A stretch of DNA of 9,461 bases from a virus (Duplodnaviria; Heunggongvirae; Uroviricota; Caudoviricetes), in the IMG/VR virus record IMGVR_UViG_2565956711_000008. One strand, written 5' to 3'. A program made the position numbers and the translations under genes. Shown here one piece after another: positions 1 through 9,396 of this stretch (the stretch's first letter is position 1; each line of letters starts with the position of its first letter). Below the pieces are notes generated by a model that ran no database searches, was not told the DNA's origin, and saw only the letters and a list, made by a program, of their open reading frames with translations.

Positions 1-1236
1 CTATGATAACCGCGCATTCAACATGGCTACCTGTTCGTCGTTCATGTCATCAATCCACATACCGTAAATTTCATACACCATCTGCGCAGTTTCATGCCCC
101 ATTTGGCTGGCTATAAATGCCGGGTTCGCTCCTGCCGTCAACAGCCAGCAGGCAAAAGTATGCCGCGTATGGTACGGATTACGGCGGCGAATACCAGCAC
201 GTTTTACTGCTGCATTCCACCTTGCCCCCAAACTGCTTACCGAGTAATAAGGTTTTTGTTTTCCGTTACACACCCTGGGCATGAAAACAAAATGCAGTTT
301 TTGCTTTTCGGTTCTGCCGTACTCCCGATGATAAAAGGTGATTTCGCTTTTGCGATGATGCCCGGTCAGTTTGTATTGCTCCTTCAGTGCTTCAAGAGCA
401 GGCTGCAGTAGTGTTACCGTCCGGATCCCCGCATTTGTTTTTGGGGGACCGAACATATCCAGTATCGTCAGGTTTCTTCTGACATTCACAACTCCCTTCT
501 CGAAATCCACATCCTCCCACGCCAGAGCAGCCAGTTCCCCGTGACGAAGCCCGGAGTATACGGCAAATTTCCACAAGTTCTGGCTCTGTCCTTTTTCACT
601 TTCCATTAATGCATTGAATTCTGTTTTAGATAACGGGTCAGGCTTTATTCTGTTTCTCTGTAATTTCTTTACTCCTTCAAATGGTTTGGTTGATATAAAT
701 CCCGACTGATACGCAAAACGTAACAACGAACAGAGCAGGGCGATATAGTTATCAACTGTGCGCACGGTTCTTCCTTTTTTGTTGGATCTTGGATTATCCA
801 GGTAAAGCGTTTCTCCATGCAGCAGTTCATTCCGGTAGTTTAAGATATCGCTATAACGAATATGCGATATCGGAGTACTCTCACAAATTATTATCCTGAG
901 TGTTTTTAATTGTGATTTCGTTTTCTTCATTGTGTTTGTTGTTAACTCTGTTTCTTTAATTTTTGTCCAGATATCACAAAGCTCCCCGAACGTTTTTATG
1001 ACCCTCGTTGTCACCATTTTTGCCCCAGTGCTGGACTGGGGAAAACGTCTTAAATACTCAAACTCACCGGAATTGATTTCATGAACTATCAACGCTCTTA
1101 AATTCCCGGCTTTTTTAATGTTACTGTTAGTAACCTCCCAGCCTTTCAATGTTTCCCGACATCGTTTTCCTCGAAACATGAACCAGATGCGAATGTATTT
1201 ACCTCGAATCTCGACACCTGTTGGTAATTTAGACAT
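1..1236 (-). CDS. intR: Tyrosine-type site-specific integrase, Rac prophage IntR-like
   Basis: Uninterrupted 411-aa ORF with stop at 1-3 and ATG at 1234-1236. N-terminus MSKLPTGVEIRGKYIRIWF and overall sequence match my recollection of Rac IntR. C-terminal region carries the tyrosine-recombinase signature (HTRHTFACWL ... YEIYGMW). An excisionase-like ORF ends 2 nt upstream, the usual xis-int arrangement. Confidence 0.93.
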   Translation of the reverse strand: MSKLPTGVEIRGKYIRIWFMFRGKRCRETLKGWEVTNSNIKKAGNLRALIVHEINSGEFEYLRRFPQSSTGAKMVTTRVIKTFGELCDIWTKIKETELTTNTMKKTKSQLKTLRIIICESTPISHIRYSDILNYRNELLHGETLYLDNPRSNKKGRTVRTVDNYIALLCSLLRFAYQSGFISTKPFEGVKKLQRNRIKPDPLSKTEFNALMESEKGQSQNLWKFAVYSGLRHGELAALAWEDVDFEKGVVNVRRNLTILDMFGPPKTNAGIRTVTLLQPALEALKEQYKLTGHHRKSEITFYHREYGRTEKQKLHFVFMPRVCNGKQKPYYSVSSLGARWNAAVKRAGIRRRNPYHTRHTFACWLLTAGANPAFIASQMGHETAQMVYEIYGMWIDDMNDEQVAMLNARLS

Positions 1237-1237
1237 A

Positions 1238-1453
1238 TCATGAGTCTTTGATAAACTGATTTATCTTTGGATAGTTATACCAGATAATCCCTCGCTTACT
1301 GTCTGGCTTCCCTAAAGGAGATACTCGTTTGAAGTGGAAGCCTTCCACCCAACAGTTCTGGCGGTATGCTTCAATTTGTCTGGCCCCCAGACCAGTGCGA
1401 AGCATCAGGCCGTATTCAACCATCCACTCTTCATTAAAGATTACTTGTGCCAT
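1238..1453 (-). CDS. xisR: Excisionase-like small protein (Rac XisR/YdaQ-like), 71 aa
   Basis: ORF in the track spans 1238-1477 from a TTG. The in-frame ATG at 1451-1453 ([14 protein letters not shown]...) is preceded by AGGTGA 5 nt upstream, so I take that as the start. Stop TGA at 1238-1240 lies 2 nt before the int ATG. Small and int-adjacent; name by recollection of Rac ydaQ. Confidence 0.72.
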
Positions 1454-1490
1454 CGCATCACCTCTGGCAGGCGCCAATGTTAGACTTAAA

Positions 1491-1518
1491 TTGACGCCCG
1501 ATGTTGATTATTAATAAT
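1491..1518 (+). promoter_or_regulatory. Candidate sigma70 promoter on the plus strand, reading antisense into ydaC/ralR
   Basis: TTGACG at 1491-1496, 16-nt spacer, AATAAT at 1513-1518 (5/6 matches to each consensus hexamer). Lies in the 99-bp gap between xis and ydaC. Sequence match only; AT-rich intergenic DNA gives such matches by chance. Confidence 0.3.
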
Positions 1519-1552
1519 CAGCTATGAAGTTTTAATTTGAATACAATGCAAT

Positions 1553-1741
1553 TCACGAGGACTGAAGTTTCTCGCAATTAAAATTTATCAGTTTTACTTT
1601 CTGCTCTCTGGAAACGCCTGCTTCTTTTTTACCTGAGAGCATTTTTTCGCATTCTGATTTCGTTAGTTTAGATTTTGAATATCTTGTCCAGTTAGTAGGA
1701 GTGCCACCTTCCTTTTCAATAGTGGCGGTAATTTTATACAT
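1553..1741 (-). CDS. ydaC: Small Rac prophage protein of unknown function (YdaC-like), 62 aa
   Basis: ORF MYKITATIEKEGGTPTNWTRYSKSKLTKSECEKMLSGKKEAGVSREQKVKLINFNCEKLQSS. ATG at 1739-1741 is preceded by GGAGGTG and is embedded in the last codons of the ralR frame (overlapping genes). Position between xis and ralR matches the Rac gene order I recall. Confidence 0.6.
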   Translation of the reverse strand: MYKITATIEKEGGTPTNWTRYSKSKLTKSECEKMLSGKKEAGVSREQKVKLINFNCEKLQSS

Positions 1742-1928
1742 GAACACCTCCATTATTATTTCCAGTGGTTCGTTTATTTCATCGTTCGAGTGCTTCTTTT
1801 TCACTTCCACCATAACCGGTTCGGGATTCGCATCCGTTACACTTCGCTCGGTAATATCCTGAAATGGCTTTCACCGTTACTGATGGACAACCACAAAATG
1901 GACATGGTTTAACATTGTCATATCTCAT
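1734..1928 (-). pseudogene. ralR: RalR (Lar) type I toxin / restriction-alleviation gene with an internal in-frame TGA
   Basis: From ATG 1926-1928 the frame reads MRYDNVKPCPFCGCPSVTVKAISGYYRAKCNGCESRTGYGGSEKEALER, then TGA at 1779-1781, then continues open as NKRTTGNNNGGVHV to TAA at 1734-1736, overlapping the ydaC ATG. My recollection of RalR has Trp (TGG) at the stop position, so this looks like a TGG-to-TGA change giving a 49-aa product. Confidence 0.62.
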
Positions 1929-1955
1929 AATTTTTCTCATAAAAATATTTCAAGT

Positions 1956-1976
1956 TGGCGGTGCATTACACCGCCA
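1956..1976 (-). other. Inverted repeat / RNA hairpin between recT stop and ralR start
   Basis: TGGCGGTG (1956-1963), loop CATTA, CACCGCCA (1969-1976): a perfect 8-bp GC-rich stem. On the minus-strand transcript it is followed after 6 nt by AAUAUUUUU. Could be a weak terminator or an attenuator upstream of ralR. Confidence 0.25.
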
Positions 1977-1996
1977 GGCTGAATTATTCCTCTGAA

Positions 1997-2794
1997 TTAT
2001 CGATTACACTGTATTCCCCCGGTTAATACAGAGGAATCTGCAGGATCGATTGTCAGTGGTTCCTTTTCATCCATTGATACTGCACGCTGGATCTCAATTG
2101 ATACGGGCAGATATTTGAACAGGCGACGAATAGCCGTTTTCTTTGCCATTTCTTCCCAGTGAGTTACCCACGGCCCGTTATTACCAGCTTTACTCTGGCT
2201 GCGCACCAGCTCAATCTGTTTGCGCGTCATAACTTCAAACTGAGTACCTCCGTCTTTCAGTCTTGCGACAGCATAGACGTGGGTAACAGGGGCATCTTCG
2301 TTTTCTCCTGGGCGGTGTATTAACTTTTCATCAAGGCCAAATTCGAAATTAAACTCGTCACCTTCACGGACAACACGGGCTGACAAGCTGGCGATTTGAC
2401 CTGAACGGCGAGCCAGATCAATCATGCCGCGATAGCCAATGATTAGCTGAACGTTTTTTTTACCGCTCTTTTCGTTTTTATTACCAAAAGGCAGTAAATA
2501 TGCATGACCGAGGGCGCTACCGGGCTCAAGTCCGAGCTGTGAACACTGTACGATTGCACTGACAAAACTCATAGTGTCACAGTTTCCTAACGCCGGAACT
2601 TTACGAATTTCTGTGGTGGCGATACGGATCATACGTTCAGCCGTCATATGGCGTGGAAGAGCTGCTGCCAGTTGCTCTTTCATTGATGGCTGGTTAATAA
2701 AACTAATCACGTCGTTATTTTTAATTGCTGCTGGTGCACGGTTTCCCTGAGTTTTTTGCAGATCGGCTTTTGCGATTGGTGGTTGCTTAGTCAT
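1997..2794 (-). CDS. recT: RecT single-strand annealing recombinase, with altered C-terminal tail
   Basis: ORF from ATG 2792-2794 ([21 protein letters not shown]...) to TAA 1997-1999; AAGGAA lies upstream. Start overlaps the recE stop (ATGACTAAG), the classical recE-recT coupling. Matches my recollection of RecT except the last residues, which read GIQCNR instead of [10 protein letters not shown]. Confidence 0.9.
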
Positions 2795-4137
2795 TTGCAT
2801 ATTCCTTAGCCCAGCGGGGCAGTGATAACGTCTTAATAGCTGGCCATTCATCGGTATTGAGGCAGTCAGCCAGGGTTCGCAGATTGCGGTGATATTCCAG
2901 CTGACCTGCCAGTTTTGCTTCTTCGCCCATCATGAAAATTTCAACCGGATAACGTCCGCATTCAATAGTTGTGCTGGCAACCAGAAAAACGAAAGTTGGC
3001 TGCACTCCAAACTGTGCTTCATAACCGTCACTGTAGAATGCATCCTGAACGTGATAGCGGTAGTCGTAATAAGCGGTTTTGAATCGTTGAATATCCGCCG
3101 TAGTTTTCACGTCCATGATCCAGTGAAATTCAGGGATAATTTTGTCCGGACGGCACCGACACAAAATTGCTGTTTCAGGATCTTCCCAGTAAATTGATGA
3201 TTCAGCGTGTCCGGCGCTTTCAACAAGCCATTGCCCCAGCGGCAAAGCCATAACGCTCTGATACATGAGTTCAATTTTCCGGCCTTCTTCGGCAGTGATA
3301 ACCGTTTTTCCTGTGCTTGCGCATTCCCTCAGAAACGCTTTCTCTTCTTCTTTTCCGGAGTTTGTCCGGCGGTTAAATTCAGGTGCTACGATAAAGCGGT
3401 TACTGAATTCTTCCGGCTCAAGTACCCGGCAGTGGAAAGCGGTTCCTAAATCGAGCGTTTTTGTCTTTGTGGTGTCCACGGGGGCATTTTTACGCCACAA
3501 ATACAGTGCCGGAGTATCAGCAATGTCATCGAGCTGAGACTTACTGACACCGGGACCCGCGTGGTAATTCTCATTCGAAATTCCGTAATAAATACCTGGC
3601 TCTATGTCTTCTACGATTACGGGATCTGCGACTTCGCCAGTTTCATCACTGCAATCGCGATGCGGATCGCTGCCAGCATTCTCATTGTGCGGATGTTCAG
3701 CGCCTTCCATTTCCTCCGGATCATTTTCCTTAGCTTCAACCTGACTCTCTTCATCGAATGTTTCCTGGTATGTTGCGTCGCCCATCACCGCACCACAGTC
3801 AGGGCAGTTATCCCCGCCAGTCTGGCCGCAGGCATTGCAGGCTATTTCCGGTTCCTGTTGCACTACTGGCTCAGGTTGATTCATATCCGGGCTGGTTTTT
3901 TCCGTTTCTGGCTGGTTCTGGTACACACAATCGCGAGTCTGGATCCCCTTTACCCATTTCGGATCGTTCGGGTCGCTAATTCCGTCAACAAATTCACCAC
4001 GTGATGCAGCAAGCAATTTATCGGCATCGACAGGATTTTTTGATGGAATGTTTTTCCGGGCTTCATGGAGTTCTGCCCGCAGTTCCTGATATTTCGCATC
4101 AACAGAATTTACCTGTGACTGAGCATCCAGCGGCTGG
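2787..4137 (-). pseudogene. recE: 5'-truncated recE (exonuclease VIII) remnant retaining the complete C-terminal nuclease domain
   Basis: Minus-strand frame is open from the stop at 4182-4184 down to TAA 2787-2789. Translation from about 4137 downward ([23 protein letters not shown]...[10 protein letters not shown]...[13 protein letters not shown]) matches roughly the C-terminal half of RecE as I recall it. No recE N-terminal half is present; upstream the frame runs into antisense IS1. First in-frame start is the TTG at 4014-4016, with no obvious Shine-Dalgarno. Confidence 0.85.
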
Positions 4138-4351
4138 CTGGCCGCTGTATGAATCCCGCCTGAAGGGAAAGCTGCACGTAATCAGCAAGCGATATACGCA
4201 GCGAATTGAGCGGCATAACCTGAATCTGAGGCAGCACCTGGCACGGCTGGGACGGAAGTCGCTGTCGTTCTCAAAATCGGTGGAGCTGCATGACAAAGTC
4301 ATCGGGCATTATCTGAACATAAAACACTATCAATAAGTTGGAGTCATTACC
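4135..4351 (+). mobile_element. Partial IS1 (3' terminal ~217 bp: insB 3' end and right terminal inverted repeat)
   Basis: Plus-strand translation [66 protein letters not shown] equals the C-terminus of IS1 InsB as I recall it. It is followed by the IS1 terminal sequence AAGTTGGAGTCATTACC ending at 4351. The rest of IS1 is absent. Confidence 0.85.
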
Positions 4352-4551
4352 GCGCTCTTTACTCATTCGTTTACAACGTGGGTGCTGGCAATTTCAGAAC
4401 ATCGACGCTTCTTCGCAAAATAAACCAGGGCGATATCAAAGGCGCATGTGATCAGCTACGTCGCTGGACATATGCTGGCGGTAAGCAATGGAAAGGTCTC
4501 ATGACTCGTCGTGAGATTGAGCGTGAAATCTGTTTGTGGGGTCAGCAATGA
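4352..4551 (+). pseudogene. 3' fragment of a lambdoid phage lysozyme (endolysin R-like) gene, truncated by IS1
   Basis: Immediately after the IS1 end the frame reads [65 protein letters not shown], the C-terminus of the lysozyme family I recall from E. coli lambdoid prophages. Stop TGA at 4549-4551 overlaps the Rz ATG (ATGA). No N-terminal catalytic part and no start codon. Confidence 0.8.
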
Positions 4552-5012
4552 ACAGAGTAACCGCGATTATCTCCGCTCTGGTTATCTGCATCATCGTCTG
4601 CCTGTCATGGGCTGTTAATCATTACCGTGATAACGCCATTACCTACAAAGCCCAGCGCGACAAAAATGCCAGAGAACTGAAGCTGGCGTACGCGGCAATT
4701 ACTGACATGCAGATGCGTCAGCGTGATGTTGCTGCGCTCGATGCAAAATACACGAAGGAGTTAGCTGATGCGAAAGCTGAAAATGATGCTCTGCGTGATG
4801 ATGTTGCCGCTGGTCGTCGTCGGTTGCACATCAAAGCAGTCTGTCAGTCAGTGCGTGAAGCCACCACCGCCTCCGGCGTGGATAATGCAGCCTCCCCCCG
4901 ACTGGCAGACACCGCTGAACGGGATTATTTCACCCTCCGGGAACGACTGGTAATGATGCAGGCCCAACTTGAAGGTGCTCAGCAATACATAACCGAGCAG
5001 TGTTTAAAGTAA
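4548..5012 (+). CDS. rzpR: Rz-like inner-membrane spanin, 154 aa
   Basis: [55 protein letters not shown]... is near-identical to lambda Rz as I recall it: N-terminal transmembrane helix, coiled-coil periplasmic domain. ATG overlaps the lysozyme-fragment stop. Confidence 0.88.
4768..4953 (+). CDS. rzoR: Rz1-like outer-membrane lipoprotein spanin, embedded in the +1 frame of Rz
   Basis: [57 protein letters not shown]...: signal peptide with lipobox (VVGC) and the proline-rich mature region typical of lambda Rz1. Wholly nested inside Rz. Confidence 0.85.
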
Positions 5013-5149: not shown

Positions 5150-6607
5150 ATGAATACATCTCATGTAAGAGTTGTTACTCATATGTGTGGGTTCTTGGTT
5201 TGGCTCTATAGTCTTTCAATGTTGCCACCAATGGTTGTAGCATTGTTTTATAAAGAAAAAAGCCTGTTCGTTTTCTTTATAACTTTCGTTATATTTTTTT
5301 GCATTGGTGGCGGAGCGTGGTATACAACTAAGAAATCTGGCATTCAATTACGTACCCGTGATGGGTTTATTATAATTGTAATGTTTTGGATTTTGTTTTC
5401 TGTTATTAGTGCATTCCCTTTATGGATTGACTCAGAACTTAATTTAACGTTCATTGATGCTCTGTTTGAAGGGGTTTCTGGAATAACAACAACAGGAGCA
5501 ACTGTAATTGATGATGTTAGTTCATTACCTCGGGCATATTTGTACTATCGGTCACAGTTAAATTTTATAGGTGGTTTAGGAGTTATTGTTCTGGCGGTTG
5601 CAGTATTGCCATTATTGGGTATTGGTGGTGCAAAGCTTTATCAGTCAGAAATGCCGGGGCCATTTAAGGATGACAAACTCACTCCCCGCCTGGCCGATAC
5701 GTCACGGACACTGTGGATAACTTATTCTTTATTAGGTATTGCTTGTATTGTCTGTTATAGACTTGCAGGAATGCCTTTGTTTGATGCTATTTGTCACGGG
5801 ATTTCCACAGTTTCGCTTGGTGGTTTCTCAACTCATAGCGAGAGTATCGGATATTTTAATAACTATTTGGTTGAGCTGGTGGCTGGTTCTTTTTCCCTGC
5901 TATCGGCTTTCAACTTCACTCTTTGGTATATTGTTATTAGCAGAAAAACGATAAAACCTTTAATCAGAGATATTGAACTTCGTTTCTTTCTGTTAATAGC
6001 CTTAGGGGTGATCATTGTTACCTCTTTCCAGGTCTGGCATATAGGTATGTATGACTTGCATGGAAGTTTTATTCATTCGTTTTTTCTTGCCAGCTCCATG
6101 CTCACTGATAATGGTTTAGCTACGCAGGATTATGCAAACTGGCCCACGCACACGATAGTGTTTTTGCTGTTGTCAAGTTTCTTTGGGGGATGTATAGGTT
6201 CAACCTGTGGTGGAATTAAGTCACTTCGATTTCTTATACTTTTCAAACAAAGCAAACACGAGATAAATCAGCTTTCTCATCCCAGAGCGTTGTTGAGTGT
6301 AAATGTAGGAGGGAAGATAGTTACAGATCGTGTAATGAGGTCTGTATGGAGTTTCTTTTTTCTTTATACTCTCTTCACGGTGTTTTTTATACTGGTGTTA
6401 AATGGTATGGGATATGATTTTCTTACATCATTTGCAACAGTGGCTGCATGTATTAATAATATGGGATTAGGTTTTGGGGCTACTGCATCGTCATTCGGAG
6501 TGCTTAATGACATTGCAAAGTATTTAATGTGCATAGCTATGATTCTTGGTCGCCTTGAAATTTATCCTGTTATTATATTGTTTTCAGGTTTTTTTTGGCG
6601 CTCCTAA
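5150..6607 (+). CDS. trkG: TrkG potassium uptake protein (TrkH/TrkG family), 485 aa
   Basis: ORF MNTSHVRVVTHMCGFLVWLYSLSMLPP... to TAA 6605-6607, matching my recollection of Rac TrkG. Multi-pass membrane protein with the family glycine motifs (e.g. TTTGATV, GGLG). Markedly AT-rich relative to flanking phage genes. The ORF is also open from TTG 5132, which has a better-spaced Shine-Dalgarno. Confidence 0.9.
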   Translation: MNTSHVRVVTHMCGFLVWLYSLSMLPPMVVALFYKEKSLFVFFITFVIFFCIGGGAWYTTKKSGIQLRTRDGFIIIVMFWILFSVISAFPLWIDSELNLTFIDALFEGVSGITTTGATVIDDVSSLPRAYLYYRSQLNFIGGLGVIVLAVAVLPLLGIGGAKLYQSEMPGPFKDDKLTPRLADTSRTLWITYSLLGIACIVCYRLAGMPLFDAICHGISTVSLGGFSTHSESIGYFNNYLVELVAGSFSLLSAFNFTLWYIVISRKTIKPLIRDIELRFFLLIALGVIIVTSFQVWHIGMYDLHGSFIHSFFLASSMLTDNGLATQDYANWPTHTIVFLLLSSFFGGCIGSTCGGIKSLRFLILFKQSKHEINQLSHPRALLSVNVGGKIVTDRVMRSVWSFFFLYTLFTVFFILVLNGMGYDFLTSFATVAACINNMGLGFGATASSFGVLNDIAKYLMCIAMILGRLEIYPVIILFSGFFWRS

Positions 6608-6766: not shown

Positions 6767-8812
6767 TCTAACGGGAAATACACCGCACAGGATGCAACGA
6801 CAGCACAGAAAGGGATAATCCAGCTAAGCAGCGCGACCAACAGCACGTCTGAAACGCTGGCGGCAACGCCAAAGGCAGTAAAATCAGCCTATGACAATGC
6901 AGAGAAACGTCTGCAGAAAGACCAGAACGGCGCTGATATACCCGATAAGGGACGCTTCCTGAACAACATTAACGCGGTCAGTAAAACAGACTTTGCTGAT
7001 AAGCGTGGTATGCGTTATGTGCGGGTTAACGCTCCTGCAGGTGCAACATCTGGAAAATATTACCCTGTTGTTGTTATGCGTTCTGCTGGCTCAGTAAGCG
7101 AACTGGCATCAAGGGTCATTATCACCACGGCAACGCGAACCGCAGGCGATCCGATGAATAACTGCGAGTTTAACGGATTTGTTATGCCTGGTGGCTGGAC
7201 TGACAGGGGGCGTTATGCTTATGGAATGTTCTGGCAATATCAAAACAATGAACGAGCCATCCACTCAATAATGATGAGTAATAAGGGCGATGATTTGCGC
7301 TCTGTGTTCTATGTTGATGGCGCTGCTTTCCCTGTTTTTGCGTTTATCGAAGATGGCCTGTCAATATCCGCACCTGGTGCTGATCTCGTTGTTAATGATA
7401 CGACCTATAAGTTTGGGGCAACAAATCCAGCGACTGAATGTATCGCGGCGGACGTTATCCTTGATTTTAAGAGTGGGCGTGGTTTTTATGAGTCTCATTC
7501 GTTAATCGTTAACGATAACTTGTCGTGCAAAAAACTTTTTGCCACAGACGAAATTGTAGCGCGTGGTGGTAATCAGATTCGAATGATAGGTGGGGAGTAT
7601 GGGGCATTATGGCGTAATGATGGCGCTAAAACTTACCTGCTGCTTACCAATCAAGGTGATGTTTATGGTGGATGGAATACATTAAGACCGTTTGCTATTG
7701 ATAACGCAACCGGCGAACTGGTTATTGGAACCAAGCTGTCTGCAAGTCTGAACGGTAACGCATTGACAGCAACAAAGCTGCAAACGCCAAGACTGGTTTC
7801 TGGGGTTGAGTTTGATGGTTCAAAAGATATTACTTTAACCGCCGCGCATGTGGCTGCTTTTGCCAGAAGGGCAACGGATACATATGCCGATGCGGATGGT
7901 GGCGTTCCCTGGAATGCCGAATCAGGCGCTTACAATGTCACCCGCTCTGGCGACAGCTATATTCTGGTTAACTTCTATACCGGAGTCGGAAGTTGCCGGA
8001 CCCTGCAGATGAAGGCGCATTACAGAAATGGTGGTCTGTTCTACCGTTCTTCAAGAGACGGTTATGGTTTTGAGGAAGACTGGGCAGAAGTTTATACCTC
8101 GAAAAATCTTCCACCAGAAAGCTACCCAGTCGGCGCACCAATCCCGTGGCCATCAGATACCGTTCCGTCTGGTTATGCCCTGATGCAGGGGCAGACTTTT
8201 GACAAATCTGCTTACCCGAAACTTGCAGCCGCTTATCCGTCAGGCGTGATCCCTGATATGCGTGGCTGGACGATTAAGGGCAAGCCCGCCAGTGGTCGGG
8301 CCGTATTGTCTCAGGAACAGGACGGCATTAAATCACACACCCACAGCGCCAGCGTATCCAGTACGGATTTGGGGACGAAAACCACATCGTCGTTTGATTA
8401 CGGCACTAAATCCACGAATAACACTGGTGCGCATACTCATAGTTTAAGTGGCAGCACGAATGCAGCTGGTAATCACAGCCATAGAGATGGCCGTCGATTT
8501 AACCCCAGTGTTTTTAAAGATACTTATCAATATGGTTATACAAGCTCAGGTCAAAATACCTGGGGTGTACAAGGCTCAGTAGGTATGTCTACGGGGTGGT
8601 TAGCTAATACCAGTACAGATGGTAATCATAGCCACTCACTGTCCGGCACAGCAGCATCTGCAGGTGCACACGCGCATACTGTCGGTATTGGTGCTCATAC
8701 GCACTCCGTTGCGATTGGTTCACATGGACACACCATCACCGTTAACGCTGCTGGTAATGCGGAAAACACCGTCAAAAACATCGCATTTAACTATATTGTG
8801 AGGCTTGCATAA
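6767..8812 (+). pseudogene. stfR: 5'-truncated side tail fibre gene (lambda Stf / Rac StfR-like), C-terminal ~680 codons
   Basis: Frame is open from the stop at 6764-6766 to TAA 8810-8812. From about 6790 it reads [31 protein letters not shown]..., the conserved internal tail-fibre motif (lambda Stf has it mid-protein). It ends [31 protein letters not shown], identical to the lambda Stf C-terminus as I recall it. No N-terminal region is present; the first in-frame ATG is at 7010 and lacks a good ribosome-binding site. Confidence 0.85.
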
Positions 8813-9396
8813 TGGCATTCAGAATGAGTGAACAACCACGGACCATAAAAATTTATAATCTGCTGGTCGGAACTAATGAATTTATTGGTGAAGGTGACGC
8901 ATATATTCCGCCTCATACAGGTCTGCCAGCAAACAGTACCGATATTGCACCACCAGATATTCCTGCTGGCTTTGTGGCTGTTTTCAACAGTGATGAGGCA
9001 TCGTGGCATCTCGTTGAAGACCATCGGGGTAAAACGGTTTATGACGTGGCTTCCGGCGACGCGTTATTTATTTCTGAACTCGGTCCGTTACCGGAAAATG
9101 TTACCTGGTTGTCGCCGGGAGGGGAATATCAGAAGTGGAACGGCACAGCCTGGGTGAAAGATGCAGAAGCAGAAAAACTGTTCCGGATCCGGGAGGCGGA
9201 AGAAACAAAAAACAGCCTGATGCAGGTAGCCAGTGAGCATATTGCGCCGCTTCAGGATGCTGCAGATCTGGAAATTGCAACGGAGGAAGAAACCTCGTTG
9301 CTGGAAGCCTGGAAGAAGTATCGGGTGTTGCTGAACCGTGTTAATACAACAACTGCACCGGATATTGAATGGCCAACAGTACCCATTATCGAATAG
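8812..9396 (+). CDS. tfaR: Tail fibre assembly protein (lambda Tfa-like), 194 aa
   Basis: [51 protein letters not shown]... to TAG 9394-9396. ATG overlaps the stf stop (TAATG). Size and position immediately after stf match the lambda stf-tfa pair. Confidence 0.88.

Follow-up and report, generated by a model that had tools for sequence, protein, structure and literature searches.

A run of five C in the final codons of recT, within a remnant of the cryptic Rac prophage of E. coli, raises the question of whether one extra base at the very end of a prophage gene is a homopolymer error, a real inherited mutation or a regulatory device, and of what it does to the RecT protein. The window, by which we mean the whole stretch of 9,461 nt that was analysed, is such a remnant, integrated beside ttcA. 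Over its full 9461 nt it matches scaffold KI530595.1 of GCA_000488015.1, probably its source, at 100% identity, and it differs from the genome of EC09 by five substitutions only, all far from recT. The gene annotation used here is that of the RefSeq record of EC09 (PGAP), which is nearly identical, carried over to the window.

One extra base in the last codons of recT

The run lies at 2016-2020 on the plus strand and reads as five G on the sense strand of recT, in codons 258-260. The initial annotation had rightly described five C in the last recT codons but had placed them at 2026-2030, which is off by 10, and the span that it gave for the feature (2020-2035) contains only the last C of the run; the rest of its description held. 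As written, recT occupies 1997-2794 on the minus strand (265 codons followed by a TAA stop at 1997-1999), and its minus-strand 3' end reads ...GTA TTA ACC GGG GGA ATA CAG TGT AAT CGA TAA. Translation of this ORF agrees with the GIQCNR ending that had been reported for it (residues 260-265). When one C is removed, the frame stops instead at 1984-1986, as had been predicted for a four-C version, and the ending typical of K-12 is restored. Counted from the MTKQ start at 2794, the two products are 265 aa as written and 269 aa restored. With both frames translated, it is clear that the C-terminus of RecT is decided by the length of the run, that is, by a single base.

The frame is lost after Gly259, and the new stop is displaced 13 nt upstream of the ancestral one. 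The ten wild-type residues 260-269, which form an acidic tail, become GIQCNR in the window's protein, while 259 of the 269 RecT residues (96%) are still encoded, including the entire catalytic domain. A leftover of the ancestral coding sequence persists out of frame at 1984-1996 on the minus strand, with the ancestral TAA stop at 1984-1986, and the recT pseudogene feature of PGAP, transferred from EC09, spans 1984-2794 on the minus strand.

The closest characterized relative is the RecT of K-12 (b1349, P33228), a single-strand annealing protein encoded in the recET operon of the Rac prophage. The two genes occupy the same locus, between recE and ralR and next to intR and ttcA, and the window sequence is 98% identical to K-12 recT at the DNA level, with the Pfam RecT domain intact. 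In K-12 MG1655 (NC_000913 1413984-1414793), recT carries four G on the sense strand and encodes 269 aa ending exactly in the acidic tail that the initial annotation had given for the four-C version. The alignment to b1349 that it had proposed is equally clear: the last 60 nt of K-12 recT are the same as the window minus the extra base. Relative to K-12, the window thus has an extra G at codons 258-260, a protein of 265 rather than 269 aa whose tail has changed to GIQCNR, and a truncated copy of the partner gene recE. The window holds eight other C or G runs of at least 5 nt. A C or G run of 5 nt is by itself unremarkable, and what stands out is the contrast with nearly all other recT copies, in which, as in K-12, the run has four C.

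The RecT core and its C-terminal motif

The Pfam RecT domain (PF03837) covers residues 53-244 with a score of 192.6 bits against a cut-off of 24, and the score is equal for the wild-type and the frameshifted proteins. The structure of Listeria innocua RecT (7ub2) is matched over query residues 16-248 (E = 1.1e-14). Because the frameshift begins at residue 260, beyond the RecT domain, the annealing core is intact, and judged from the sequence the 265-aa protein might still be a working annealase, which would make this a partly functional allele rather than a null.

The segment that is lost is a conserved one. A C-terminal motif, [GA]-[ED]-[YF]-x-[VE]-[VIL], followed by an acidic or polar tail, was found in 24 of 24 wild-type orthologues aligned, down to 61% identity; the alignment included proteins from Salmonella, Proteus, Providencia, Xenorhabdus, Edwardsiella, Plesiomonas, Rahnella, Morganella, Gilliamella and Orbus. 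The motif is missing from the window's protein, which has GGIQCNR in its place and so is not an intact wild-type RecT. In RecT numbering the motif comprises residues 259-264 (window about 2001-2018 in the ancestral frame), and its conservation extends across Enterobacterales and Orbales.

The tail of RecT proteins has been discussed mainly by analogy. [quoted passage not shown] That domain of lambda Red-beta binds lambda Exo and the host SSB (PMC6393309), and contact of the RecT tail with an exonuclease partner or SSB has been proposed on the same grounds (PMC11611040, PMC13490951). The two have in common that they are C-terminal parts of a phage annealase outside its annealing core, but the tail of RecT is just ~25 residues long, and partner binding by the tail of E. 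coli RecT is a proposal. By this analogy, the motif that is lost here probably couples RecT to RecE and/or the host SSB, and it is reasonable to suppose that the 265-aa protein would have lost that coupling. In the literature we found neither a direct test of the E. coli RecT C-terminus nor a description of this allele. The modest interest of the allele lies here, in that it naturally removes a conserved C-terminal motif of Rac-type RecT that is without an assigned function; as a natural variant that keeps the core and loses the motif, it could be used to probe whether the motif binds RecE or SSB.

The Rac remnant around recT

At the left end of the window, intR (1-1236), xisR (1238-1453), a DUF1187 gene (1553-1741, 62-aa product), ralR (1779-1928, minus strand), recT and the 3' part of recE (recE') follow one another beside ttcA in the same order as in K-12, with recT overlapping recE and lying immediately downstream of it. 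The recE remnant (2787-4142, minus strand) retains about 452 codons, corresponding to the C-terminal PD-(D/E)XK nuclease part (Pfam DUF3799), and is labelled 'incomplete; missing N-terminus' by PGAP. Neither a full-length recE (866 aa) nor the early region upstream of it is present: recE without its N-terminus abuts an IS1 fragment (4136-4351, plus strand; a partial IS1 transposase in PGAP), which has taken the place of the recE 5' part and the remaining early region of Rac. This fragment is ~216 nt long, with junctions at ~4136-4142 and 4351. Directly after it comes a fragment of rrrD (4354-4551), followed by a lysis gene (4548-5012), trkG (5150-6607), a tail-fibre fragment (6791-8812) and tfaR (8812-9396); the window has none of the genes that run from racC to the late region. 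The recE'/IS1 junction was found in 1 of 5426 complete E. coli genomes, namely EC09.

Upstream of the recE remnant, a simple consensus scan of the minus strand found no sigma-70-like site, and a promoter and terminator scan of 1700-4500 returned no more sites than shuffled sequence did. Taken with the deletion, this simple scan suggests that recE'-recT is unexpressed. In the five-C lineage recET is already out of action, with the 5' half of recE lost to the IS1 fragment and the Rac early region upstream deleted. Because the operon is disrupted in this lineage, the recT frameshift is most simply taken as the neutral decay of a prophage gene that is probably not expressed, rather than as an adaptive or regulatory device. 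The locus resembles the frameshifted pseudogenes of other decaying cryptic prophages annotated by NCBI PGAP: a single-base indel in a short homopolymer, within a prophage with an IS insertion and large deletions, carrying the 'frameshifted' label. It differs from the usual case in that the shift falls at the very end of recT, with the catalytic domain still encoded.

Downstream of recT, the next gene is ralR, which neither the new nor the old recT stop overlaps. Between the recT stop and the ralR start lies a hairpin at 1957-1975, with a perfect 7-bp stem and a 5-nt loop (GGCGGTG-CATTA-CACCGCC); it was not flagged by the terminator scan, and no T run immediately follows it. Since both recT stops are upstream of the hairpin and of ralR, a polar effect of the frameshift on ralR is not expected. 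The ralR product is 49 aa in the window and 64 aa in K-12, and the 62-aa DUF1187 protein stands where K-12 has rcbA (69 aa), differences which indicate that the left arm of this Rac element is a different allele from that of K-12. Opposite the DUF1187/ralR region, the RalA antitoxin sRNA was matched in Rfam at 1557-1735 on the plus strand (225 bits), and near tfaR the IS009 RNA family was matched at 9155-9353 on the plus strand (227 bits), both above the gathering score.

Origin and inheritance of the insertion

To see how widespread the five-C run is, we took a 61-nt query with the run at its centre and searched the complete E. coli genomes of RefSeq. The segment is present in 1592 of these genomes, and a single one of them, EC09, has five C (100% over 61 bases); among the matches listed, the other complete genomes gave a 60-base match, that is, four C. 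The initial annotation had held that reference recT sequences with the same run would argue against its reading. Such sequences do exist, but they are a small minority, and RefSeq (PGAP) labels the EC09 copy a pseudogene, 'frameshifted'. An exact-match scan of the GTDB species representatives for a 46-nt stretch with the five-C run returned none; the collection holds one genome per species, so this result is uninformative. Strain E2863, which has an intact Rac prophage and four C, aligns to window positions 1-4136 with 0 mismatches and 1 gap. As the two differ over this segment by that base alone, the five-C run is a clean one-base insertion on an otherwise unchanged haplotype.

The same allele recurs in many other data sets. 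In a collection of 15 billion proteins the exact 265-aa product is indexed in 793 blocks and occurs on 470 contigs, with four NCBI accessions listed (including the KTE10 protein) alongside Logan and ENA sources; the 265-aa product with the MTKQ start is the version present, and 267-aa and 284-aa alternative-start versions of the as-written ORF were absent from the collection. We fetched eight loci that encode it: three from NCBI assemblies (two of isolates, one with a 4.5-Mb contig), three on ENA metagenome contigs and two in Logan single-run assemblies. The five-base run is present in all eight, and seven are 100% identical to the window over recT and its flanks, the eighth (L007, an NCTC assembly) having a different recT haplotype. 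One IMG/VR contig is likewise identical.

Together, these data lead us to consider it very probable that the run records a genuine G4 to G5 insertion, inherited within one E. coli lineage and reflecting neutral decay of a cryptic Rac recT. The mutation itself would most likely have arisen by replication slippage from G4 to G5 on the sense strand; the frame shift after Gly259 exchanges the conserved tail for GIQCNR and leaves the annealing core (residues 53-244) untouched. The initial annotation had left the choice between sequencing error and slipped-strand mutation undecided, and it is now decided for a real, inherited mutation, since the same allele on the same haplotype appears in so many independent assemblies. 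That the fifth C is a homopolymer miscall in a genome with four seems highly improbable. Homopolymer indels are a common artefact, only one complete RefSeq genome has the run, and some carriers on other haplotypes are weak (the contig L011 has 2.7x coverage, and L007 has several split genes nearby), but the identical allele and haplotype occur in hundreds of independent records, spanning isolate, metagenome and raw-run assemblies, which excludes a one-off assembly error, and the remainder of the 4.1-kb segment is base-perfect against E2863. Runs of just 4-5 bases are, moreover, not normally error-prone. From these sequence records we take the five-C run to be a real mutation that has passed by descent through one E. 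coli lineage, which includes GCA_000488015.1, KTE10 and EC09.

The insertion is not confined to this haplotype. At least five recT haplotypes, defined at the DNA level, carry an extra G; among them are the NCTC assembly, which has three synonymous recT differences and an intR diverged by about 4%, and a K-12-type recT, on 17 contigs from several samples (9 contigs for the K-12-type +1 product), often beside an intact 866-aa recE. Products with one G fewer (G3, ...VLTGNTV) occur on both backgrounds (2 and 1 contigs), a further tail frameshift ending ...GEYSDR was seen, and products with two extra G (G6) were absent from the protein collection on both backgrounds. These length variants would favour a recurrent, reversible change in the G run that toggles the RecT tail, a switch that we nonetheless judge very unlikely. 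The variants are rare, with few contigs against at least 1000 for each wild-type product, and some contigs supporting the insertion on other haplotypes have very low coverage. At the variable site closest to the run, several of the haplotypes with the extra G have the same base as the window, and some of these haplotypes could be explained by recombination. The 470-contig allele sits on one fixed haplotype, as descent predicts, and no revertants were seen within that lineage. Known contingency loci have far longer runs than 4-5 bases, and frequent reversible changes among close relatives, the other mark of a phase-variable locus, are not what a 4-5-nt run with five C in 1 of 1592 genomes on a fixed haplotype displays. 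The pattern agrees with slippage of an ordinary kind, at a low rate and in a short run, one event of which a clonal lineage has raised to appreciable frequency; a phase-variable switch does not fit it. We give a similarly slim chance to the proposal that selection has favoured the 265-aa RecT, either as an annealase no longer coupled to RecE or SSB or as one with altered partner specificity, with the G run acting as a minor hotspot that repeatedly yields it in different Rac prophages. Least probable of all, and extremely so, is low-level +1 ribosomal slippage, in which tRNA-Gly on GGG-G would restore the wild-type tail and both forms of the protein would be made. The mRNA reads ACC GGG GGA AUA, and if the peptidyl-tRNA moved by +1, from GGG to the following GGG, GAA UAC would indeed come back into frame. 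No stimulatory element is evident, however, be it a Shine-Dalgarno-like sequence upstream or, in the A site, a slow codon or a stop codon; more than 1500 genomes have the gene in its ancestral, ordinary in-frame form, and the operon is disrupted in the five-C lineage.

The five-C frameshift allele of recT is ordinary and lineage-specific, is already in public databases and is already flagged by RefSeq. It matters little beyond annotation, where it illustrates that a RefSeq 'frameshifted' flag can mark a true inherited mutation and not a homopolymer error; it is also a possible marker for one E. coli lineage.

Two further observations concern variation among these close relatives. The five substitutions that separate the window from EC09 (8299, 8335, 8374, 8389 and 8953) cluster in the tail-fibre and tfaR genes; recombination with paralogous tail-fibre genes could account for them, as could differences in polishing. 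In three other loci (L003, L005 and L006), identity to the window ends exactly at the end of the IS1 fragment (4351) and gives way to different chromosomal DNA, which suggests that sub-lineages differ in their IS1-associated rearrangements or else that assemblies were joined through IS1.
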